Shown piece after piece: positions 16,797-62,310 of a stretch of 64,000 bases of DNA. Within the stretch, counting starts at the first letter, position 1. Every line of letters begins with the position of its first letter. The notes beneath the pieces were generated by a model. That model had not been told where the DNA came from. It did no database searches and was given only the letters and a program-made list of their open reading frames with translations. The stretch comes from Anaerosomatales bacterium (lineage in GTDB: Bacteria; Actinomycetota; Coriobacteriia; Anaerosomatales; SLCP01). A program made the position numbers and the translations under genes. The stretch lies in NCBI GenBank assembly GCA_029210645.1, contig JARGFT010000001.1:235595-299594 (forward strand), in the 5' to 3' direction.

Positions 16797-18785
16797 ATGG
16801 ACGCGCTTCACGGCGTGGAGCTGGTGGTCGACGTCACCGCCGTGTTCGCGCTCTCGATCGTAGCGGTGCTGATTTGTCACCGGCTCAAGATCCCTGCCGT
16901 GGTCGGCTTCCTGATCGGCGGTGTCCTCGCAGGACCCCACGTCCTCGGGCTGATCAGCTCGGCAGCGCAGGTCGAGGTGATGGCCGAACTCGGTATCGCG
17001 CTGCTGCTCTTCGTGATCGGGCTGGAGCTCTCCCTGCGTGATCTCGCTGAGATACGCAAGCCGTTCCTCATCGGTGGCACCATTCAGATGGCGGGGACTG
17101 CAGCGGTCATCTCCATCGGCTCGCTGATCATGGGCAGGACTTGGGAGCAGGCGGTCTTCCTCGGTTTCGTCGTCGCCCTCTCCAGTACTGCCGTCGTGCT
17201 GAAGCTGCTCCAGGACCGTGCCGACATCGAGAGCCCCCACGGCCGTATGGTGCTGGGGACGCTCATCTACCAGGACATCGCTGTTGTCCCGCTCATGATC
17301 GCCGCGCCGCTGTTCGCCGCCGCAGGTGGGGCGCCGGCCGAAGGCGGCTCGTCTCTCCTCGAGTTCATCGCCCGCCTGGTGATGGTCGGCGCGCTCGTCT
17401 ACGTGAGCTACCGGTGGCTCGTCCCGGTTCTGATGCATCAGGTGGCACGCACTCGCAGCAGGGAGACCTTCCTCCTTGCGGTGCTGGTCATCTGTATGGT
17501 CATCGCTTTGGCGAGTGGTGCGGCCGGGCTGTCGATCGCGCTTGGCGCGTTCCTTGCCGGCCTGGTGATATCCGACTCACCCTTCAGCCATCAGGCAGTT
17601 GGCGTCATCATGCCTTTCCGCGATGTCTTCATGAGCCTCTTCTTCGTCTCGATCGGCATGCTCGTTGACCTGCGCTTCATAGCAGAACATCCGCTGCTAA
17701 TCGCCGAGCTGACCCTCGGGATCCTGCTGATCAAGCCGTTGGTAGCCGGTTTCGCGACGCTCGTCCTCGGCTACCCGCTGCGCACTGCGATCCTCGCCGG
17801 GCTCGCTCTCGGCCAGATCGGGGAGTTCTCCTTCATCCTCGCCGAGGCGGGGGTCACTGTAGGACTGGTCGACCACGACCTGTTTCAGATCGTGGTCGCA
17901 TGTGCGGTGTTCAGTATGGTCCTCACACCTGCGCTACTCGCGGTGGCGCCGCGTGTGGCTCACCGCATGTCGGGGCTCCCACTGCCCGACTGGCTGATAC
18001 GGGGCCGCAACGCTACAGAGCTCACGGCGGAGCACGACCACCACGGGCACGTCCTCGTGATCGGGTTTGGGATCACCGGCCGCAACGTGGTCCACTCGGT
18101 CGACCACGCGGGGGTGCTCTCGACGGTCATCGAGCTCAACCCGGACGTCGTACGCACCGCCCGCGAGGAGGGCGTGGACATCCACTACGGTGATGCGAGC
18201 AACCCGGCCGTGCTCGAGCACGTACACGCGGCTGAGGCCCGCGCGATCGTGATCGCGATCGACGACCCGATCGCCACCCGGCGCATCGTCGAACTGGCCA
18301 GGCGGATGTCTCCGGACGCGTTCATCGTGGTCCGCACGCGCTATCTTCGCGGCACCGAGGACCTGCACTCGCTCGGTGCGGACGAGGTCATCGCCGACGA
18401 GGTGGAGGTCTCCGTCGAGGTGCTCTCACGGGTGCTCGCCCGGATGCTTGTGCCCCGGGAAGACATCGAGCGGTGCATCCGTGAGATCAGGGCCGAGACG
18501 CGCGACATGGCGCGTCCGCTCTCCGACCACGCCCTGTCTGCGGGCGATCTCCGGGTTGAGGTCCCCGAGCTGCGTACGCAGACCTTCCGGGTCACCGAGG
18601 GCTCGCCGTTCGCGCACCGCACGATCGCCGAGCTCGAGCTGCGCCCGCGCTACGGAGTCACGGTGCTCGCGGTCAGACGCGGCGACCGCTCGATGCCCAA
18701 CCCGCCCGGCCACACCGAGATACGCGTCGACGACGTGCTCTTCGTCATCGGACCAGAAGGCTTCGACCCCCATAAGGTCACGTAG
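16797..18785 (+). CDS. CPA2/Kef-type cation:proton antiporter with TrkA-N and TrkA-C domains
   Basis: About 13 TM segments, LSSTAVV, QD, GEFSF; GFGITG Rossmann domain, YGDA; C-terminal RCK-C. Confidence 0.9.
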   Translation: MDALHGVELVVDVTAVFALSIVAVLICHRLKIPAVVGFLIGGVLAGPHVLGLISSAAQVEVMAELGIALLLFVIGLELSLRDLAEIRKPFLIGGTIQMAGTAAVISIGSLIMGRTWEQAVFLGFVVALSSTAVVLKLLQDRADIESPHGRMVLGTLIYQDIAVVPLMIAAPLFAAAGGAPAEGGSSLLEFIARLVMVGALVYVSYRWLVPVLMHQVARTRSRETFLLAVLVICMVIALASGAAGLSIALGAFLAGLVISDSPFSHQAVGVIMPFRDVFMSLFFVSIGMLVDLRFIAEHPLLIAELTLGILLIKPLVAGFATLVLGYPLRTAILAGLALGQIGEFSFILAEAGVTVGLVDHDLFQIVVACAVFSMVLTPALLAVAPRVAHRMSGLPLPDWLIRGRNATELTAEHDHHGHVLVIGFGITGRNVVHSVDHAGVLSTVIELNPDVVRTAREEGVDIHYGDASNPAVLEHVHAAEARAIVIAIDDPIATRRIVELARRMSPDAFIVVRTRYLRGTEDLHSLGADEVIADEVEVSVEVLSRVLARMLVPREDIERCIREIRAETRDMARPLSDHALSAGDLRVEVPELRTQTFRVTEGSPFAHRTIAELELRPRYGVTVLAVRRGDRSMPNPPGHTEIRVDDVLFVIGPEGFDPHKVT

Positions 18786-18859
18786 GGTTCCCGTGCCGAT
18801 GCGCTATCATACGAACCGCCGCATCCCATCCGTCGCCACCTGCGAGGAGTCTCCGTCGT

Positions 18860-19861
18860 ATGACACGTAAGCGCGCGCTCACCGGCTATCGGCCCACCGG
18901 CAAGCTCCACCTCGGCCACTGGTTCGGCAATCTCCAGAACATGCTGACCATGCAGAACGAGTACGACGCGTTCTACTTCATCGCGGACTGGCACGCGCTC
19001 ACCAGTGATTGGGCCGACACCACACGAGTTCGCGAGTTCACCGAGGAGATGGTACTCGACTGGTGTGCCGCCGGCCTCGATCCCGCGCGGTGCACCATCT
19101 ACCGCCAGTCGGATGTCCCCGAGGTCGCCGAGCTTGCGCTCTACTTCTCGATGGTCACCCCGATGTCGTGGCTCGAGCGCGTCCCCTCGTACAAGGAGCA
19201 GCGCGAGCAGGTGACCGACAAGGACCTCGGCAACCTCGGCTTCTTCATGTACCCGCTGTTGCAAGCTGCCGACATCACGATCGTGCTTGCCGACGTGGTC
19301 CCTGTGGGCGAGGACCAGCTCCCGCACCTGGAGCTCACGCGCGAGATCGTGCGGCGGTTCAACAACGCCTACGGTGAGTATCTCGTGGAGCCTGCCGCGC
19401 TCATCGCGAAGCAGGGCGCACGGGTTCCGGGTACCGACGGACGCAAGATGAGCAAGTCGTACGGCAACTCCATCTTCATCTCGGACTCTCCCGACGAGAT
19501 CACCGCGAAGGTGCGTGGCATGATCACCGACCCTGCGCGCAAGCTGAAGACCGATCCGGGCGACCCGGATATCTGTCCGCTCCACCAGATACACAAGCTG
19601 GTCAGCCCCGACCCGGCCGACATCGCCGAGTGGGATCGTTGCTGCCGCAGTGCGGAGTGCGGTTGTGTCGCTCACAAGCAGAAGATGGCCACCGACCTCG
19701 TCGAGTACCTTGCCGAGTTCCGCGCGCGTCGCGAGGAGCTTGCCGCGCGGCCGGGCTTCGCGTGGGAGGTCCTCGAGGCCGGGGCCGCCAAGGCACGGCC
19801 GGTTACCTCAGAGGTCGTCGAGACCTGTCGGCGCCTCGTGCGCATCGACAACAACGGGTAG
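18860..19861 (+). CDS. trpS: Tryptophan--tRNA ligase
   Basis: PTGKLHLGH, YPLLQAADI, VPVGEDQ, KMSKS. Confidence 0.96.
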   Translation: MTRKRALTGYRPTGKLHLGHWFGNLQNMLTMQNEYDAFYFIADWHALTSDWADTTRVREFTEEMVLDWCAAGLDPARCTIYRQSDVPEVAELALYFSMVTPMSWLERVPSYKEQREQVTDKDLGNLGFFMYPLLQAADITIVLADVVPVGEDQLPHLELTREIVRRFNNAYGEYLVEPAALIAKQGARVPGTDGRKMSKSYGNSIFISDSPDEITAKVRGMITDPARKLKTDPGDPDICPLHQIHKLVSPDPADIAEWDRCCRSAECGCVAHKQKMATDLVEYLAEFRARREELAARPGFAWEVLEAGAAKARPVTSEVVETCRRLVRIDNNG

Positions 19862-19873
19862 GGGGCGTCCCCG

Positions 19874-20623
19874 CTGGGCTACCGGGTCAAGATCGACGCC
19901 TTCGAGGGACCGTTCGACCTCCTGCTGCACCTCGTTGCACGGCAGAAGGTCGACGTGAGCTCGATCTCCATCACCGAGGTCACGGACCAGTACCTCGCCT
20001 ACATCGAGGGAATGCACGAGCTCGACCTCGATGTCGCGAGCGACTTCCTGCTCGTGGCTGCCACGCTGCTCGAGATCAAGGCAGCCAGCCTGCTTCCCAC
20101 AGAGGAGCAGTATATCGGCGAGGACATCGACGACCTCTCTCCTGAAGAGGCACGCGAACTCCTCGTGACCCGTCTGCTCGCGTACAAGCAGTTCAAGAAC
20201 GTCGCTGCAGAGCTCGCGGCCCGGATGGAGTCGGTCTCGCACATGCATCCGCGTCAGGCAGGCCTTGAAGAGCCCTTCGTGGGGCTCATGCCCGACTATC
20301 TCGAGGGCCTCACTCTGCGCGGTCTTGCGGTGATCTGTGCCGACCTTCTTCACAAGCGCGAGGTCTTTCTCCTGCAGGCAGAGCACGTTGCCGCGGCACC
20401 GATCAGCCTGGAGTTGCACACCGAGAGCGTGTCGCGGACCCTGGCGCGTGCGGGTACGGTACGCTTCAGCGAACTGCTCGGCACCGACCCCACGCCAGAG
20501 GTCCTCGTCGTGACGTTCCTCGCCATTCTCGAACTCTACAAGCGGGGACGGGTTCAGCTGCGACAGGACGAACTGTTCGACGACATCGTGGTGACAGCCA
20601 CCGACGTTCAGGAGGATTCGTGA
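19874..20623 (+). CDS. scpA: Segregation and condensation protein A (probable CTG start)
   Basis: Conserved N-terminus (M)GYRVKIDAFEGPFDLLLHLV lies upstream of the first GTG (19955); FLAILEL C-terminal winged helix. Confidence 0.9.
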   Translation: MGYRVKIDAFEGPFDLLLHLVARQKVDVSSISITEVTDQYLAYIEGMHELDLDVASDFLLVAATLLEIKAASLLPTEEQYIGEDIDDLSPEEARELLVTRLLAYKQFKNVAAELAARMESVSHMHPRQAGLEEPFVGLMPDYLEGLTLRGLAVICADLLHKREVFLLQAEHVAAAPISLELHTESVSRTLARAGTVRFSELLGTDPTPEVLVVTFLAILELYKRGRVQLRQDELFDDIVVTATDVQEDS

Positions 20624-20624
20624 C

Positions 20625-21260
20625 ATGCAAGCGGACGTGACGCTCCGCGGTGCGATCGAGGCACTGCTCTTCGTGTCGGACGAGCCGGTCTCGGCCTCGC
20701 GCATCGGCAAGATACTCGAGGCCGATGTGTCGAGCATCGCCCGGGTTCTCTCCGATCTGGCCGAGGAGTACCGCAACGACGAGCGGGGATTTCAGCTCCG
20801 TGAGGCAGCGGGAGGATGGCGCCTCTACACGCATCCGGCCCATCACGACGCGATCGAGCAGTTCGTCCTCTCCTGGGACACGCGCCGCCTCTCCCAGGCG
20901 GCACTGGAGGCGCTTGCGGTCGTCGCGTACCACCAGCCCGTGACCAGGGCCGGTGTGAATGCCGTGCGCGGCGTGAACAGCGAGGCGGTGATCTCCTCGC
21001 TCATCGAGAAGGGCCTGGTACGCGAGGCTGGTCGCGATCGTGAAGCAAGCAACGCCATCATCTACACGACGACAAGAACGTTCCTTGAGAAGTTCGGGTT
21101 GAAGAGCCTCGACGAACTGCCGCCGCTCGAGGAGTTCGCCCCCGACGAGCGAACCGAGGCCGCCATACGCGATCGTCTGGGTGGTCCGTCTGCAGACATC
21201 GGGTTCGGAGTGGATGACGCTTCCGGGCCCGACGAGGACGACGTCACCGGGATCGACTGA
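20625..21260 (+). CDS. scpB: Segregation and condensation protein B
   Basis: IEALLFVS, LSQAALEALAVVAYHQPVTR, FLEKFGL..LDELP. Confidence 0.95.
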   Translation: MQADVTLRGAIEALLFVSDEPVSASRIGKILEADVSSIARVLSDLAEEYRNDERGFQLREAAGGWRLYTHPAHHDAIEQFVLSWDTRRLSQAALEALAVVAYHQPVTRAGVNAVRGVNSEAVISSLIEKGLVREAGRDREASNAIIYTTTRTFLEKFGLKSLDELPPLEEFAPDERTEAAIRDRLGGPSADIGFGVDDASGPDEDDVTGID

Positions 21261-21262
21261 CG

Positions 21263-22039
21263 GTGGCATCCCCTCGAACCACTGGAGCATCGGGAGACGA
21301 TGGCGGGCGTATCGTCCCCATGCGCCTGCAGCGTTTCCTTGCGCGCTCCGGTGTGGCGTCGCGCCGGGGGAGCGAGGACCTGATGACCGCCGGCCGCGTG
21401 CGGGTGAACGGCGAGGTCGTGCGCGAACTCGGCTCCCGGGTCGATCCTCTCGTCGACGTGGTCGAGGTCGACGGGCGGGTCGTCACACTGGCTTCGACAC
21501 CGGTCTACATCGTGCTCAACAAGCCGGCGGGATACGTGACAACCATGAATGACCCGCAGGGGCGTCCCACGGTTGCCGATATCGTTCCACGTGATCCCGC
21601 AGGGCTCTTCCCGGTCGGTCGGCTCGACCTTGAGACGACGGGATTACTGCTCTTCACGACGGACGGGGACCTCGCGCACCGGCTTCTGCACCCGAGATAC
21701 CACGTAGAGAAGGTCTACCACGCACGGGTACAGGGCACACCCTCACCCGAGGATCTCGACACCCTGGCAGCCGGCGTCAAGCTCGAGGACGGCATGACCG
21801 CACCGGCCCGCGTCCGCTTGCTCGATCCCGGGCCGCCTGCCTCGGTCGAGATCGCGATACGGGAAGGGCGCAAGCGACAGGTCCGGCGTATGTTCCTCGC
21901 TGTCGAGCACGCGGTCATATCGCTGCACAGAGAGTCCTTCGGTCCAATCCGCCTCGGCGATCTTGCCGCGGGTGCGCATCGCGCGCTCGGGTCCGAGGAG
22001 GTTGCCGCACTCTGGCGCGCTGCGGGGAGCGATGTGTGA
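21263..22039 (+). CDS. rluB: Pseudouridine synthase, RsuA/RluB family (start possibly ATG 21320)
   Basis: S4 domain RLQRFLARSGVASRR; GRLD catalytic motif; EGRKRQVRRM. Confidence 0.88.
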   Translation: MASPRTTGASGDDGGRIVPMRLQRFLARSGVASRRGSEDLMTAGRVRVNGEVVRELGSRVDPLVDVVEVDGRVVTLASTPVYIVLNKPAGYVTTMNDPQGRPTVADIVPRDPAGLFPVGRLDLETTGLLLFTTDGDLAHRLLHPRYHVEKVYHARVQGTPSPEDLDTLAAGVKLEDGMTAPARVRLLDPGPPASVEIAIREGRKRQVRRMFLAVEHAVISLHRESFGPIRLGDLAAGAHRALGSEEVAALWRAAGSDV

Positions 22040-22614
22040 TGGCGCTTGTCGTGATCACAGGAGGTGCCCGCAGCGGCAAGTCTGCGGCGGCGCAGCGAAT
22101 GGCGGTTGCACGCTCGCGCGCCGGGGCAAGGGTTGTGGTGGCCGTCTTCGGAAAGGCCGACGGGGACCCCGAGTTCGCCGAACGCATCGAGAGACACCGC
22201 ACCGGGCGGCCCGAGGGGTTCCGCACGCTCGAGGCGAGCGACCCGCGTTCGTGGATCGAGGATGTCGCCGAAGACGAGCTGCTTGTACTGGAGTGCCTGG
22301 GGACTCTCACGGCCTTGGCCATGGAGGAGATCGGACAGACTGAGACGGAGGTCGCGTCATCCGACCTCCTTGACTCCTCCCTGAGCGAGTTCGTCGAGTG
22401 GGTGGTGCGCCGCCCGGGAGATACGATCGTTGTGACAAACGAGGTCGGGTGGGGCGTGGTTCCCTCATTCGCATCCGGACGGATCTTCCGCGACGCGCTC
22501 GGGCGGGCGAACGCCGCACTCGTGACCGCTGCTGACGCCTCCTATCTCGCCGTCAACGGGAGGCTCCTTGACCTGGGTTGCCTGCCGCGTGACGTGCAGT
22601 GGCCCGCCGACTGA
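22036..22614 (+). CDS. cobU: Adenosylcobinamide kinase / cobinamide-phosphate guanylyltransferase
   Basis: GGARSGKS, RIERHR, VTNEVGWGVVP, FRDALGRAN. Confidence 0.92.
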   Translation: MMALVVITGGARSGKSAAAQRMAVARSRAGARVVVAVFGKADGDPEFAERIERHRTGRPEGFRTLEASDPRSWIEDVAEDELLVLECLGTLTALAMEEIGQTETEVASSDLLDSSLSEFVEWVVRRPGDTIVVTNEVGWGVVPSFASGRIFRDALGRANAALVTAADASYLAVNGRLLDLGCLPRDVQWPAD

Positions 22615-22620
22615 AGGAGT

Positions 22621-23700
22621 TTGACGCGCGTGGACGCTCGTGAACGGATACGTACACTCCTGGACTCGGTGAGGCCCACCGATCCGGCTGCCGAGCGGCG
22701 CGCGTGGGCGCGGCTGGACACGCTGACCAAGCCACCCCGAAGCCTTGGAAGACTCGAGGAGGTCGCGGCCGCGATCGCCCGCATTCAGGGTACCGACCGT
22801 CCCTCGGTCACGCGCAAGGCCATCATCCTCATGGCCGGGGACCACGGTGTCGTGGCCGAGGGGGTTTCGCCGTATCCTCAGTCGGTGACGTGGCAGATGG
22901 TTGCTAACTTCGCGGCCGGTGGAGCAGCCATCAACCAGATCGCCTCCTCGGTTGGCGCTGATCTGCTCCTTTACGATCTGGGGGTAGTCGGGGACACGAG
23001 CGTCTTCACCGGTGTCAATCAAGCCAAGGTGGTCCGGGGGACCGCGAACATGCGCCTTGGACCGGCGCTGACCCGCGATCAGGCGGTGGAGGCTCTCCTC
23101 GCAGGTGCCCAAGCCGCCTCCGAGGCTGCAGATGGCGGAGTTGCGCTTCTCGGTACGGGTGAGATGGGAATCGGGAATACCACCGCGGCGGCAGCCCTTA
23201 CCGCCGCGTACACGGGTGCACCCGTGGAGCGGGTCGTGGGACCGGGGACCGGCCTCGACCACACCGGCGTAGCTCACAAGATGGCCGTGGTCCGCGATGC
23301 GCTCGCACGCAATGTCACGCCGGGAAGCGACGCACTGGACATCCTCGCTGCGCTGGGCGGTGCCGAGATCGCCGGTCTTGCCGGTGTCATGCTCGGCGGA
23401 TCCGCACGGGGTGTCTGCGTGCTCGTGGACGGGTTCATCTCGGGAGCAGCCGCGCTGGCTGCCGTCGCGCTCTGCCCGTCATGCCGTGACCACCTCCTTG
23501 CGTCACACCGGTCGCTGGAGCCGGGCCACACCGTCCAACTCGATCATCTGGGCATGGCGCCCGTGCTCGATCTCGATCTGAGACTCGGGGAGGGAACCGG
23601 CGCAGCGCTCTCCATGGGGCTTGTGGACGCAGCGTGTCGGATGCTTTCGGGTATGGCGACGTTTGAGGAGGCCGGAGTGAGCGGCTCGGAGTCCGCGTGA
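22621..23700 (+). CDS. cobT: Nicotinate-nucleotide--dimethylbenzimidazole phosphoribosyltransferase
   Basis: LTKPPRSLGRLE, AGDHGV, GEMGIGNTT, DGFIS, LRLGEGTGA. Confidence 0.95.
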   Translation: MTRVDARERIRTLLDSVRPTDPAAERRAWARLDTLTKPPRSLGRLEEVAAAIARIQGTDRPSVTRKAIILMAGDHGVVAEGVSPYPQSVTWQMVANFAAGGAAINQIASSVGADLLLYDLGVVGDTSVFTGVNQAKVVRGTANMRLGPALTRDQAVEALLAGAQAASEAADGGVALLGTGEMGIGNTTAAAALTAAYTGAPVERVVGPGTGLDHTGVAHKMAVVRDALARNVTPGSDALDILAALGGAEIAGLAGVMLGGSARGVCVLVDGFISGAAALAAVALCPSCRDHLLASHRSLEPGHTVQLDHLGMAPVLDLDLRLGEGTGAALSMGLVDAACRMLSGMATFEEAGVSGSESA

Positions 23701-24485
23701 AGGACGTGTCGACATCGCGCCCGCTGCGGGACCTCTCGCTGGCGGTGACGCTGCTGACGGCGGTCCCGCTGCCAGCGCGCTGGCCCGCCGACGAACGTCC
23801 GGATGTCGCGGGCTACTTCCCGCTGGCAGGTGCGCTGCTGGGTAGTGTCGGGTACGTTTTCCTCGCCCTTGCCGCACGGCTGGGTGTTCCGGGCGGCACT
23901 CGTGTCAGCCTCGAGTCTGTGATGCTTGCGGTGTTGCTGGTGACCATGTGGGCGATGCTCACCCGCATGCTGCACTGGGACGCGCTTGCGGATGTCGCGG
24001 ACGCCTACTGGGGAGCGCATGAGCCGTCCATGCGCCTGGAGATTGCAAGCGATCCCCACGTCGGGGCGTTCGGTGTCGCCGGTATCGTGCTGGTCGCTCT
24101 CGTACAGGTTGCAGCACTCTCGCTGCTCATCGCGAACGGGTTCCTTGTCGCCGTCGCCGTCGCCGTGGTGATCGCGCGCTACGCTGCGCTTTTCGGAGCC
24201 TGGCTGGGCTCGCCTGCCAAACAGACCGGTCTCGGAGCTGTGGTCGCGGGCCGACCACGTCCGGCATCCGTTGTTGCCGCCACACTCGTGTTCCTGGCGA
24301 CGTTGTCACTGTCGTGGGCCTCCGGGCCGGGTGCCTTCGCGGCCGTCGTAGTCTGTCTCGTCGTCGCGCTCGGGGTCCCGCACGTGCTCGCATCGCGTTT
24401 CGGCGGCATCACCGGAGACGTTCTCGGCGCGAGCATTCTGCTGACCGAGACCGCTTCGCTCGCGATCCTCGCATGGGTCCGGTAG
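23697..24485 (+). CDS. cobS: Adenosylcobinamide-GDP ribazoletransferase (cobalamin synthase)
   Basis: LHWDALADVAD, DPHVGAFG, GGITGDVLGA; multi-TM. Confidence 0.92.
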   Translation: MKDVSTSRPLRDLSLAVTLLTAVPLPARWPADERPDVAGYFPLAGALLGSVGYVFLALAARLGVPGGTRVSLESVMLAVLLVTMWAMLTRMLHWDALADVADAYWGAHEPSMRLEIASDPHVGAFGVAGIVLVALVQVAALSLLIANGFLVAVAVAVVIARYAALFGAWLGSPAKQTGLGAVVAGRPRPASVVAATLVFLATLSLSWASGPGAFAAVVVCLVVALGVPHVLASRFGGITGDVLGASILLTETASLAILAWVR

Positions 24486-24489
24486 GACG

Positions 24490-25077
24490 ATGAGTGACAC
24501 CGAATTCTTGATCGTGCGTCATCCCGAGACGTGGGCCAACGTTGAAGGCCGGTTCGTCGGCCGCGGTGAATCTCCCTACACGGAGCGCGGCAGGCGGCAG
24601 TTCGATCTCTTGGCGGCACGGATCGCAGCGTTTCGTCCGGATGCCGTCTGGTCGAGCCCGCTTGCACGTGCACATGACGTGGCCGTTGCGGCAGCAGGCG
24701 CGTGCGAGGCCACCGTGACGCTCGATGACCGGCTGTTGGAGCTGGACTTCGGGCAGGCCGAGGGGCTGACGTGGCCCGAGATCGAGGCGGCAGGACTGGA
24801 GTTCGACTACCGCTCGGTGGACACTCCGGTCGCGCCCGGAGGCGAGTCCCGTGGCCAGATAGAGACCCGGTCCGCCGCGTTCGCGGATTCGCTTGTGACC
24901 GCGGGCGGGCGCCACGCGGTATGCACCCACGGAGGCGTGTTCCGAGCGATGCTGGTGCATCTCCTCGGCCTGTCGATCACCGACATATGGGCCTTCCACA
25001 TCCGTAACGGGGCGGTGGCGCACGTGAGCGTGACCGAAGGACACGGCATGATCGAGGAGTTCCGCGTCCACGGATGA
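24490..25077 (+). CDS. cobC: Histidine phosphatase family, probable alpha-ribazole phosphatase
   Basis: RH(P)ET, SSPLARA, ELDFG..EG, THGG; follows cobUTS. Confidence 0.75.
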   Translation: MSDTEFLIVRHPETWANVEGRFVGRGESPYTERGRRQFDLLAARIAAFRPDAVWSSPLARAHDVAVAAAGACEATVTLDDRLLELDFGQAEGLTWPEIEAAGLEFDYRSVDTPVAPGGESRGQIETRSAAFADSLVTAGGRHAVCTHGGVFRAMLVHLLGLSITDIWAFHIRNGAVAHVSVTEGHGMIEEFRVHG

Positions 25078-37077: not shown

Positions 37078-37196
37078 GTCTTTCTTCAGGGCGGGGTGAA
37101 AGTCCCCACCGGCGGTGATAGCCCGCGAGCCCCCACCAGGGCTGACCCGGAGGATTCCCGGGGCCGACAGTGAGAGTCTGGATGGGAGAAGGAAGG
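37078..37196 (+). ncRNA. FMN riboswitch (RFN element)
   Basis: CTTCAGGGCGGGGTGAAAGTCCCCACCGGCGGT…GCCCGCGA…GCCGACAGT..AGTCTGGATGGGAGAAG directly upstream of the rib operon. Confidence 0.95.
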
Positions 37197-37209
37197 ACCG
37201 CGCACGAGC

Positions 37210-48150: not shown

Positions 48151-48516
48151 GTGTACGAGTTGACGGTCAAAGGACACTTCGACGCCGCTCACGCGCTGCA
48201 CGGGTATCCCGGTGAGTGTCGCGAGCTTCACGGTCACACCTGGGACGTCGAGGTGACGGTTTGCGGCGATCACCTCGACGACGTCGGGATCGTCTATGAC
48301 TTCAAGCGCCTGAAGGAGGACCTCGGGGTAGTCCTCGGCAGGTACGATCACGCGTACCTCAACGAGGTTCCACCGTTCGACACGCTCAACCCGACGGCAG
48401 AGAATCTCGCACGCATCGTGTTCGAGGAGCTCGACGGAGTCGTCGGCGATGAGGTCACTGTCGCCGAGGTGGCGGTGTGGGAGTCACCGATAGCGAGGAT
48501 CGTCTACCGGGGGTAG
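48151..48516 (+). CDS. queD: 6-carboxytetrahydropterin synthase
   Basis: FDAAH, C..LHGH, DH.YLN, PTAENLA, WES. Confidence 0.92.
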   Translation: MYELTVKGHFDAAHALHGYPGECRELHGHTWDVEVTVCGDHLDDVGIVYDFKRLKEDLGVVLGRYDHAYLNEVPPFDTLNPTAENLARIVFEELDGVVGDEVTVAEVAVWESPIARIVYRG

Positions 48517-48562
48517 TCCGCCCGGCCGCGGGGCAGGCCGCGAAAGGGGAGCGGACAGAGAA

Positions 48563-48735
48563 GTGTCCCGAGAAACCTCGTCCGCGTGGTGCCTAATCCG
48601 CTGCTTCCCATTTCCCTCCATTGGAGTCCCGCTCGACCAGACCAACTCACGTTATGCCTGCTCTCGCGTTCCCCCGCCGGCGGCTACTGGTACGCAACCT
48701 TTCGGTACTCGCCAGGTCCGACTTCTCGGGACAAC
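48563..48735 (-). ncRNA. Unassigned ~173-nt structured ncRNA
   Basis: Promoter TTGACG-N17-TAACGT starts transcription at the 5' arm of an 11-bp terminal stem (TGTCCCGAGAA/TTCTCGGGACA); internal GNRA-capped hairpins. Confidence 0.6.
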
Positions 48736-48739
48736 TGCT

Positions 48740-48768
48740 ACGTTACAGGCACCGGGTGAGAGCGTCAA
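48740..48768 (-). promoter_or_regulatory. Housekeeping promoter TTGACG-N17-TAACGT
   Basis: Plus-strand cgtcaa at 48763-48768 and acgtta at 48740-48745. Confidence 0.75.
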
Positions 48769-48896
48769 GCACGTTTTCGCAGAAATACCGAGTAACTGAC
48801 GAACGGAATCGATACGAAGCTGAACGGTCACTATCGGCGTTCGGACGGGACTTCCGCGAATCCGCATATCACCGAGGCACAGGGGCTCTCATCGCC

Positions 48897-48928
48897 TTGA
48901 GACACGAGCAGTGTTAGGGTAGACTAAC
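48897..48928 (+). promoter_or_regulatory. Promoter TTGAGA-N17-TAGACT overlapped by DtxR/IdeR-type box GTTAGGGTAGACTAAC
   Basis: Palindrome 48913-48928 resembles the TTAGGTTAGCCTAA core; upstream of dtxR-feoB. Confidence 0.75.
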
Positions 48929-48972
48929 TCCGGCTGAACTCCCGGTCTCCCTGCTCTTGTGGAGGTGCCCCG

Positions 48973-49626
48973 ATGCCCACCGAGACTCTCGAGGAGTACC
49001 TCGAAACTATCTACAAACTCGCCGAACGAGGCGCGGTGCGCCCTACGCCTATCGCCGAGTCGCTGGGCGTGTCGGGTCCGACAGTGACGGCCACGCTGAA
49101 GCGGTTAGAATCGCGCGAGTTGATCACTCGCAGCGGTGGAGACGTCGTTCTCACGGATGCTGGCAGGACGCTCGCGGTGGACATCATCAGGCGCCATCGT
49201 CTTGCCGAACGCTTTCTGGTCGATGTACTCCGGTTGCCCTGGGAGGAAGCCCACGAGGACGCGTGTCGCCTGGAGCACGCACTCTCGCCGCGTGTGATGG
49301 AAGCGCTCGAGGAGTATCTCGACAACCCCGAGGTGTGTCCGCACGGGCATCCGATACCGAGCGCAGAGGGCGAGATCGTACCCGTGAAGGGGGTCCCGCT
49401 CTGCGACGTCGATAGTGGCCGTACCTCCGAGATCCTCCAGGTCTCCGAGGACGACGAGGCCATGCTGACCTATCTCGGTTCGCTTGGCATGTACCCCGGT
49501 ACGCCCGTGCGCGTGTGTGAGGTTGCACCGTTCAAAGGGCCACTATTGATCGAGGTGAACGGCACGACCTATGCACTGGGTCGGGACGTGGCCGAGCGCA
49601 TACTCGTCAGCGCCGACCTCAGCTGA
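48973..49626 (+). CDS. DtxR/MntR family metal-dependent regulator with C-terminal FeoA domain
   Basis: EEYLETIY, VSGPTV, RRHRLAE.FL, ACRLEH, CPHGHPIP, LG..PG. Confidence 0.93.
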   Translation: MPTETLEEYLETIYKLAERGAVRPTPIAESLGVSGPTVTATLKRLESRELITRSGGDVVLTDAGRTLAVDIIRRHRLAERFLVDVLRLPWEEAHEDACRLEHALSPRVMEALEEYLDNPEVCPHGHPIPSAEGEIVPVKGVPLCDVDSGRTSEILQVSEDDEAMLTYLGSLGMYPGTPVRVCEVAPFKGPLLIEVNGTTYALGRDVAERILVSADLS

Positions 49627-59968: not shown

Positions 59969-59981
59969 GTGCGATTCAGGT

Positions 59982-60327
59982 GGAGTGGGCCTGTAAGCCG
60001 GATTCTGTCGGGGATGATCATCTATCTGGGACCACGATCGCTCGTGACCTCGTGCGGGCTAACCCGAGCGTCGGTCGGGCCGACCTTAGCCGCTCCTATT
60101 CGCCCTTGCTCCGGGTGGGGTTTGCCAAGCCGCCACGTTGCCGTGACGCTGGTGCGCTCTTACCGCACCGTTTCAGCTTTTCCCCCGCTCGAGAGCGGGG
60201 GAGTCTTCTTTTCTGTGGCACTTTCCGTCGGATCGCTCCGCCCTGCCGTTAGCAGGCACCCTGCCCTGTGGAGTCCGGACTTTCCTCACGAATCCTGAAG
60301 ACCCGCGCGATCATCCAGCCCACTCCG
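59982..60327 (-). ncRNA. rnpB: RNase P RNA (type A)
   Basis: Minus strand GAGGAAAGTCCGGACTCC…ACAGAATCCGGCTTA; P1 GGAGTGGGC/GCCCACTCC; TAGAAT -10 at 60334-60339. Confidence 0.96.
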
Positions 60328-62154: not shown

Positions 62155-62230
62155 TGGTAGCCCGTACGGGATTCGAACCCGTGATTTCCGCCTTGAGAGG
62201 GCGGCGTCCTCACCGCTAGACCAACGGGCC
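62155..62230 (-). tRNA. tRNA-Glu (CTC)
   Basis: GGCCCGTTGGTCTAGCGG…CCGCC-CT-CTC-AA-GGCGG…GGTTCGAATCC…CGGGCTACCA. Confidence 0.96.
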
Positions 62231-62234
62231 ATAC

Positions 62235-62310
62235 TGGCTGGGGTGCTAGGGCTCGAACCTAGACTCTCCGGAACCAGAATCCGGCGTGTTGCCAGTTACA
62301 CCACACCCCA
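62235..62310 (-). tRNA. tRNA-Gln (CTG)
   Basis: TGGGGTGTGGTGTAACTGG…CCGGA-TT-CTG-GT-TCCGG…GGTTCGAGCCC…CACCCCAGCCA. Confidence 0.96.

Follow-up and report, generated by a model that had tools for sequence, protein, structure and literature searches.

A new stand-alone structured RNA family beside the ideR-feoB genes of an Anaerosomatales bacterium

An RNA gene between PTPS and ideR

The DNA analysed here is a window of 64,000 nucleotides (nt) from the genome of an Anaerosomatales bacterium (Actinomycetota; Coriobacteriia), positions 235,595 to 299,594 of contig JARGFT010000001.1 in assembly GCA_029210645.1; its intergenic interval 48517-48972, between two plus-strand genes, is the site of a minus-strand RNA gene. 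The RNA encoded there represents a new stand-alone structured RNA family that is in no catalogue (Rfam 15), and very probably it is a stable, highly expressed non-coding RNA of ~170 nt belonging to a real, transcribed family. In the covariance-model search against Rfam 15, no family reached its gathering threshold over the RNA in the window, none matched at an E-value of up to 10 over 48300-49000, and none matched at an E-value of up to 1 over eight homologues and the paralogue. No earlier description was found in open-access text; supplements lay outside that search, and a report elsewhere is possible. An earlier reading of the DNA (hereafter the sequence-only reading) had offered three identities for the element, namely a 6S/Ms1-like polymerase-binding RNA, a CsrA-sequestering RNA or a new class, and given the lack of any Rfam 15 match the last of these fits best.

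The gene order at this copy is NIF3, a CT398-like zinc ribbon, RNase H, PTPS (6-pyruvoyl-tetrahydropterin synthase), the RNA in the opposite orientation, IdeR and FeoB. The gene downstream of the RNA in the window, PTPS, is convergent, i.e. none follows on the strand of the RNA, and the open reading frames that overlap the element have no Pfam match. The features of the interval and its flanks are the following.

48151-48516, plus strand: gene for a PTPS/QueD-like 6-pyruvoyl-tetrahydropterin synthase of 121 amino acids
48516-48556, minus strand: G+C-rich hairpin between the RNA and the convergent PTPS stop codon, which folds and is species-specific
48555-48563, minus strand: semi-conserved pyrimidine/U-rich tail, CACUUCUCUGU, recognized in alignments of relatives
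48564-48733, minus strand: the RNA of ~170 nt, its 5′ end placed from the promoter distance and its 3′ end from the end of the stem and one RNA-library insert
48740-48745, minus strand: -10 hexamer TAACGT, 17 nt past the -35 hexamer (TANNNT in 56 of 57 copies)
48763-48768, minus strand: -35 hexamer TTGACG, read from the sequence (TTG[AC]NN here in 56 of the 57 homologous copies)
48973-49626, plus strand: gene for a DtxR/IdeR-type regulator of 217 amino acids, with the FeoB gene next

The minus-strand promoter that the sequence-only reading had proposed, TTGACG-N17-TAACGT, was read again at 48768-48740, and a TTG[AC]NN-N16-18-TANNNT pair precedes the RNA in all but one of the 57 homologous copies. 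The spacer is 17 nt long in 52 copies, the distance from the -10 hexamer to the first base of the closing stem (P1) is 7 nt in 45, and an A-rich stretch (GAAA) lies upstream of the -35 hexamer in the alignment of relatives. The promoter is not listed in a sigma-70 consensus scan because TAACGT agrees with TATAAT at only three of six positions. Since the promoter stands at a fixed distance from the stem, transcription is expected to start at the foot of P1, and the 5′ end of the RNA would fall at 48732-48734 as judged from this distance. The 3′ end is inferred to lie at ~48564, where the stem ends and where one RNA-library insert also ends. With the start at the foot of P1 and the end right after it, the RNA would thus be a nearly blunt rod.

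The tail that follows P1 reads CACYUCUAUGU in high-GC genomes and UUCUUUAUUUU in low-GC relatives (including loci L082, L084, L085 and L087 of family f56), and is a possible termination or 3′ processing signal; a terminator scan called no intrinsic terminator for the RNA. The further GC hairpin that had been noted at 48516-48556 does fold, but it is kept only in the closest relative (L002).

Secondary structure and covariation

The closing stem was found as first described: arms 48723-48733 and 48564-48574, each of 11 nt, are 100% complementary over a separation of 148 nt, and G-U pairs lengthen the stem to 14 pairs. The minus strand from 48733 to 48564 (170 nt) has a minimum free energy of -74.3 kcal/mol (z -4.15, with none of 200 dinucleotide shuffles as good), compared with -52.8 kcal/mol (z -1.52) for the plus strand; for a 241-nt stretch that includes the flanks z is only -0.33, the signal standing out for the exact 170 nt alone. 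An invariant G-U wobble in P1 (G-U in 90 of 91 sequences) becomes an A-C mismatch on the opposite strand, and the wobbles of P1 together with the asymmetry of folding fix the minus strand as that of the RNA. The molecule is a single unbranched rod with ~60 pairs of some 85 possible. It contains nine GGA trinucleotides, the number given by the sequence-only reading, located in helices and internal loops, none of them in the apical loop.

A 61-pair unbranched structure was derived from per-sequence folds over an alignment of 47 copies (A1), made with MAFFT and not fitted to any model. In this unfitted alignment, 84.6% of cells are paired, against 33-47% when the partners are slid, and two-sided changes are seen in 37 of the 61 pairs (16-25 slid); none of 500 shuffles reaches the observed values. 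A covariance model (R1) built from the structure gave 102 matches, of which the 92 distinct sequences were aligned. Here 85.4% of 5518 cells are paired (30-50% slid) and 48 of the 61 pairs change on both sides (19-32 slid), again with 0 of 500 shuffles reaching the observed values, pair counts that are inflated by the fitting of this alignment to the model itself. The homologue and covariation check that the sequence-only reading had called for therefore gives a conserved structure. In a mutual-information scan the top pairs fall almost all within this structure, and the scan found no pseudoknot and no branched junction; it moved one pair by one column (U-U 33, U-A 23, C-G 20, G-C 12). The elements of the rod, as they occur in the window, are listed below.

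48720-48733, minus strand: 5′ arm of P1, UGUCCCGAGAAGUC, 14 pairs with 98.7% of cells paired
48698-48704, minus strand: conserved GAAA, an internal loop and not a tetraloop, whose flanking helices pair with the 3′ half and covary
48683-48693, minus strand: 5′ side of the central loop, GUACCAGUAGC, invariant, with conservation of 90% or more over the 92 distinct sequences at 10 of its 11 positions
48644-48653, minus strand: apical hairpin AAC-GUGA-GUU with a GNRA-type loop (consensus CGYRAG), its closing pairs covarying
48603-48619, minus strand: 3′ strand of the central loop, GGAGGGAAAUGGGAAGC, consensus G.R.GAAAcGGgAAg
48592-48599, minus strand: A(G/U)UA strand facing the GAAA loop, here GGAUUAGG, consensus gAKUA
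48564-48579, minus strand: 3′ arm of P1, GAGGUUUCUCGGGACA, from complementarity and covariation

P1 has the consensus GuCCCRAGARGuY / RAGgUUUCUYGGGaC, with covarying R-Y pairs in mid-stem; its fifth to seventh pairs undergo compensatory changes from G-C to A-U, one of them being A-U in 24 sequences and C-G in one, against G-C in 66. After P1 come two short helices and then the internal loop in which GAAA stands opposite A(G/U)UA. The 5-pair helix beyond this loop covaries heavily (one pair is A-U in 60 sequences, G-C in 19, C-G in four and U-A in three). The GAAA/AGUA and GUA/GAA loops are, presumably, akin to the loop-E or bulged-G motif, which they resemble. In the central loop, GUACCAGnAGC stands opposite GAAAyGGrAA, and both strands are sequence-invariant across genomes of 37-66% G+C. 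Overall, helix sequences drift freely around loop nucleotides that do not change.

The apical domain differs in sequence between copies but keeps a rod-like shape throughout, with several small loops. Among the three GNRA-capped hairpins that had been proposed from the single sequence, only AAC-GUGA-GUU belongs to the conserved fold, as its covarying apex (one closing pair is GC in 32 sequences, GU in 20, AU in 13, CG in nine, UA in nine and UG in eight), whereas ACC-GAAA-GGU (within the CUGG/CCAG stem) and GC-GAGA-GC are present in the window and are not kept in relatives. Two copies from family f2 (L045:1998-2212 and L048:1998-2217) have an additional hairpin, ~30 nt long, inserted between GAAAC and GGGAA, which turns the rod into a three-way junction.

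Copies, neighbours and transcripts

A BLAST comparison of the intergenic region with 40 relatives gave matches in 36 of 41 genomes, and the conserved core coincides with the predicted RNA. Model R1 matches the window at 48555-48737 with 180 bits. The source genome (G000) has exactly two copies, the second of which (G000:C45:91168-91353 on the plus strand; locus L036:1998-2183) scores 155 bits, is ~72% identical, has its own promoter and faces a gene for an NAD-dependent epimerase/DUF1731 protein. Within the order of the window, the model finds the RNA in 66 of 67 sampled genomes, at one to three copies each, sometimes as tandem pairs 0.6-1.6 kb apart (G054:C37:217701-218478, G074:C18:158477-160262, G087:C1:645206-647010 and G089:C14:70845-71620), and in none of 83 genomes from other orders of the class. 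In a wider sample of the phylum, 10 of 150 other genomes match, nine of them full-length, comprising all six genomes of family f56 together with f50, f73, f37 and one doubtful truncated match in f35. These distant copies come from loci of 37-55% G+C, compared with 66% for the source genome, and retain P1, both strands of the central loop, the GAAA/AGUA loop and the GNRA apex. Finally, a motif scan of 185,579 species genomes gave at least 120 matching stretches; among the matches listed (80 titles) are Coriobacteriia, metagenome-assembled genomes labelled Actinomycetota/Actinobacteria or Actinomycetes, Candidatus Aquicultor, Candidatus Geothermocultoraceae and 'Coriobacteriaceae bacterium EMTCatB1', as well as four Eubacteriales-labelled entries and one 'unidentified'. 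Viral contigs gave 0 matches and plasmids no match.

In 29 of the 30 loci L001-L030, PTPS is convergent with the RNA at a distance of 14-122 nt and IdeR divergent at ~200-360 nt. In two further loci the RNA gene is flipped inside the same PTPS-ideR gap (L046:2010-2196 and L047:2032-2219), where it is co-oriented with its neighbours and has ideR 83 nt downstream. The copies of family f56 are located after UbiD/UbiA (divergent) and point towards the 3′ end of the RNase H-CT398 operon; between RNA and operon, four of the six loci (L082, L084, L085 and L087) have a CDF cation-efflux gene that lies on the same strand 157-295 nt downstream of the RNA. Second copies lie after gatB or ABC-transporter genes, or face the epimerase gene, in varying contexts, and in a single distant locus, L080, a HAD_2 hydrolase gene is downstream. 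Across lineages, the RNA gene shows an old linkage with metal-transport genes as well as with the RNase H operon; because the neighbours of the copies vary and the orientation flips, the RNA is an autonomous unit. The same-strand downstream gene expected of a riboswitch or cis-acting leader is missing from the window and from all but one of the 30 loci L001-L030, the exceptions to this rule being L046, L047 and the four f56 loci. In one distant low-GC relative (L083:2479-2936), an RNase P RNA gene (282 bits) is divergent from the new RNA at 295 nt; in the window, the RNase P RNA gene is at 59978-60326, 11 kb away.

Relatives of the RNA were found in four metatranscriptome runs (three freshwater and one estuary, under four study codes). 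Contigs of at least 82% likeness cover only 48564-48722 of the region 48400-48900; they come from relatives (0-23 differing letters) and are strandless, and the uncovered flanks, which in the relatives may be too diverged to align, form a weak control and are not taken as silence. In three runs, inserts spanning 48580 to 48721 or 48722, that is, the RNA minus most of P1, are directly flanked by adapters. Word depths on single contigs reach 17,773-25,000 in run X18 and 18,343-20,867 in run X19. DNA runs contained at most 0.44 of the sampled words, and no habitat is inferred from them. Short inserts bounded by adapters, at depths like these, are consistent with a very abundant small RNA and not with contaminating DNA. 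The recurrent fragment without most of P1 could be due to processing, or to priming or reverse transcription being blocked by the stable duplex, i.e. a library artefact. The original proposal of a structured, independently transcribed non-coding RNA with no downstream gene on its strand is borne out by the conservation of the RNA, the covariation, the conserved promoter and the RNA-library contigs.

Relation to known RNAs and possible function

Structured RNAs of housekeeping grade that are kept across whole orders are few (RNase P, the signal recognition particle (SRP) RNA, tmRNA and 6S), and the source genome has a separate gene for each of these. As the sequence-only reading had held, the element is neither RNase P RNA, the copy of which is the one already located in the window, nor SRP RNA, which is found at C22:199052-199147; tmRNA was located elsewhere in the genome by ARAGORN. 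Membership of the 6S family is likewise rejected, given that there is no match to RF00013 at an E-value of up to 10 and that a canonical 6S RNA with typical loop sequences is encoded elsewhere (G000:C44:80709-80889 on the minus strand; locus L031:1501-1681), with 48.9 bits against a cut-off of 46.4 bits. Across the class, RF00013 matches occur in 95 of 101 genomes, in 28 of the 101 over the Rfam cut-off, with or without the new RNA. The two thus co-occur, so that the new RNA adds to 6S and does not replace it. By comparison with these established RNAs, the new one is near-universal in a large uncultured order, reaches sister classes and is very deep in environmental RNA libraries.

In its general features, the new RNA is close to 6S: a length of ~170-185 nt, a long hairpin with paired 5′ and 3′ ends, a conserved mid loop, an apical stem, abundance, a strong promoter of its own and paralogues within one genome, the last as in Bacillus subtilis, for which 6S-1 and 6S-2 are named in PMC11077062. 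6S RNAs are marked by a long closing stem, a large single-stranded central bubble and a terminal stem; they bind the sigma-A holoenzyme and serve as template for product RNA. The differences are that the 6S RNA of the same genome has other loop sequences, and that the central region of the new RNA is invariant and able to form short helices. Ms1 is ~300 nt long. Ms1 of mycobacteria and Streptomyces shares with the new RNA an actinobacterial host, high abundance, a long hairpin with a central loop and restriction to a lineage; according to PMC4191392, Ms1 and 6S are both long hairpins with a central loop, and that of Ms1 matters for binding to the polymerase core. However, Ms1 has been traced by synteny with a HAD hydrolase and an oxidoreductase (PMC9130861), whereas the neighbours of the new RNA are PTPS and IdeR-FeoB at the first copy and epimerase, GatB or ABC-transporter genes at the second; moreover, model R1 matched nothing in most families of the phylum sample. 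CoRP of Corynebacterium glutamicum is a further abundant, structured, polymerase-binding RNA proper to a lineage of Actinomycetota, and is set apart by its description as a 516-nt RNA that is cleaved into two pieces and flanked by tRNA genes (PMC11077062). The abundant polymerase-binding RNAs of this phylum, Ms1 and CoRP, are described as lineage-specific and unrelated in sequence (PMC11077062; PMC9130861). The raiA motif, OLE and ROOL, structured bacterial RNAs known from comparative genomics, resemble the new RNA as orphan families that are defined by covariation, with conserved nucleotides and a restricted distribution; none of these Rfam families matches, and the new RNA is an unbranched rod. 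Junctions or pseudoknots are found in raiA motif, OLE and ROOL RNAs. The architecture is thus a variant of the known long-hairpin, protein-binding kind, and would be categorically new if its partner or function were unlike those of 6S and Ms1.

Under the mechanism proposed here, transcripts from a conserved housekeeping-type promoter would begin with the first base of the 14-pair P1 and end directly past it, each a nearly blunt, GNRA-capped rod with purine-rich internal loops. The RNA, produced in large amounts from its one to three genes, would act in trans, the invariant central loop serving as the binding site through which the RNA may sequester or scaffold a conserved cellular protein. Binding of a protein by the central loop is suggested because a strong conserved promoter, one to three gene copies and a high apparent abundance are combined with covarying helices and frozen loops, and the presence of several, at times tandem, genes is in its favour; this mode of action is plausible, if a little short of probable. 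The leading candidate for the partner is RNA polymerase, owing to the Ms1/6S-like shape and to the habit of Actinomycetota of using lineage-specific polymerase RNAs, in which case the new RNA would be such a polymerase-binding RNA beside 6S, like Ms1 and CoRP. By this analogy polymerase may be the partner, although the assignment is doubtful. Of the 6S/Ms1-like identity first suggested, family membership of 6S falls away, the synteny and length of Ms1 do not fit, and a polymerase-binding mode is possible.

Several observations weigh against such protein binding. The protein partner is a candidate only, put forward from sequence. RF00013 has matches in 42 of the 42 genomes sampled from the order and in 52 of 58 from other orders; polymerase is already provided with its usual RNA. 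Short Watson-Crick helices, with two invariant C-G pairs and one covarying pair, are possible in the central region, which may not be an open bubble of the 6S/Ms1 kind; because the region (~13 x 13 nt) is invariant, covariation is mute on whether it is open or paired. Metal-transport genes adjoin the RNA gene in two classes, which could point to another role. The inflated counts of the fitted alignment and the origin of the RNA-library contigs in relatives, both given above, belong on the same side. A co-occurring partner was also sought among the neighbours: the gene for the CT398-like zinc-ribbon protein is carried by 42 of 42 genomes of the order, yet 45 of 58 genomes from RNA-less orders have it too, which leaves no specific link to the RNA.

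The RNA could also act without a dedicated protein, as a sensor in trans of a ligand or metal such as ferrous iron, or as a self-assembling or catalytic RNA, with the central loop as its pocket or active site. The loop nucleotides that stay invariant across 37-66% G+C and the purine-rich internal loops would suit this role, as would the surroundings of the gene, which adjoins ideR(dtxR)-feoB in 29 of 30 loci of the order, has the same-strand CDF gene 157-295 nt downstream in four of six f56 loci and, in L046 and L047, has ideR 83 nt downstream on its own strand. Nevertheless, most loci have no gene following on the strand of the RNA, second copies have unrelated neighbours, and the synteny with the NIF3-CT398-RNase H operon may be mere ancestral gene order. 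Furthermore, a P1 of 14 pairs is too stable for a switch helix, and the mutual-information scan found no branched junction or pseudoknot. An RNA-only function is accordingly regarded as unlikely.

On a wider view that spans these possibilities, the molecule would serve as RNA subunit in a novel lineage-wide system, ribonucleoprotein or regulatory, found in deep-branching anaerobic Actinomycetota (the Coriobacteriia order, Candidatus Aquicultor and relatives of Candidatus Geothermocultoraceae), either as a polymerase-binding class beside 6S or as a trans sensor of ferrous iron. This can be offered only tentatively. If it holds, a new 'housekeeping-grade' bacterial RNA would count as one of the most abundant transcripts that these organisms make in their natural setting. 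Polymerase binding, if true, would mean that two different decoy RNAs govern transcription in these bacteria and would extend the pattern of lineage-specific polymerase RNAs of Actinomycetota exemplified by Ms1 and CoRP, and another partner would open a way into new biology of organisms that only metagenomes have revealed. The alignment and the model provide, in addition, an annotation tool and a metatranscriptome marker for these lineages.

The remaining explanations fare worse. A base-pairing small RNA that controls mRNAs in trans through a conserved single-stranded stretch would agree with the separate promoter, the stand-alone gene and the high expression; however, most of the possible pairs in the rod are formed, the conserved stretches left unpaired are short and confined to internal loops, and seed-pairing small RNAs do not typically conserve their whole fold across classes, which makes this an improbable role. 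A cis-acting element, be it a plus-strand leader of ideR or a structure, antisense or terminator, insulating the convergent PTPS operon, would account for the RNA filling the gap between two plus-strand genes and for the hairpin 48516-48556 that abuts the PTPS stop codon. It is largely refuted, and very improbable, considering that the plus strand folds poorly (z -1.52) and turns conserved G-U pairs into mismatches, that the promoter points away from ideR, and that second copies lie in unrelated places, with the orientation flipped in L046 and L047. As far as sequence tells, a CsrA-sequestering RNA, a Ro-associated Y RNA and a miniature inverted-repeat transposable element with paired transposon ends are all refuted and merit hardly any credence, despite the nine GGA trinucleotides and the end-to-end pairing: in the genome, rated 100% complete, neither CsrA (PF02599) nor Ro60/TROVE (PF05731) was found, the rod is not a bundle of GGA-loop hairpins, and the RNA has only two copies in the genome, synteny kept in 29 of 30 loci across the order and no match in viral contigs or plasmids. 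The CsrA option of the sequence-only reading is hence abandoned, and its caveat that the inverted repeats might prove to be the ends of a mobile element does not apply to a two-copy gene of conserved synteny. A gene for L7Ae, considered as another candidate partner, was not found in the source genome either.

Some further features of the window concern the genes around the RNA. A TTAG-N6-CTAA palindrome (TTAGTCTACCCTAA, minus strand) lies at 48914-48927, ~45 nt upstream of the ideR start, and occurs at the same position in 18 of 27 related loci (an initial 19-mer palindrome pattern matched in only one of the 27). It overlaps a plus-strand promoter-like site, TTGAGA-17-TAGACT, at 48897-48925, and is probably the DtxR/IdeR-type operator of the ideR-feoB operon. 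As a control site of the RNA promoter it was rejected, being too distant at 165-213 nt upstream of the RNA start. The longest open reading frame for FeoB (start 49571) overlaps the end of ideR (49626) by 56 nt, and the true feoB start is probably further downstream. Elsewhere in the window, an FMN riboswitch lies on the plus strand at 37078-37197 (108.9 bits) and two adjacent tRNA genes on the minus strand at 62158-62310.

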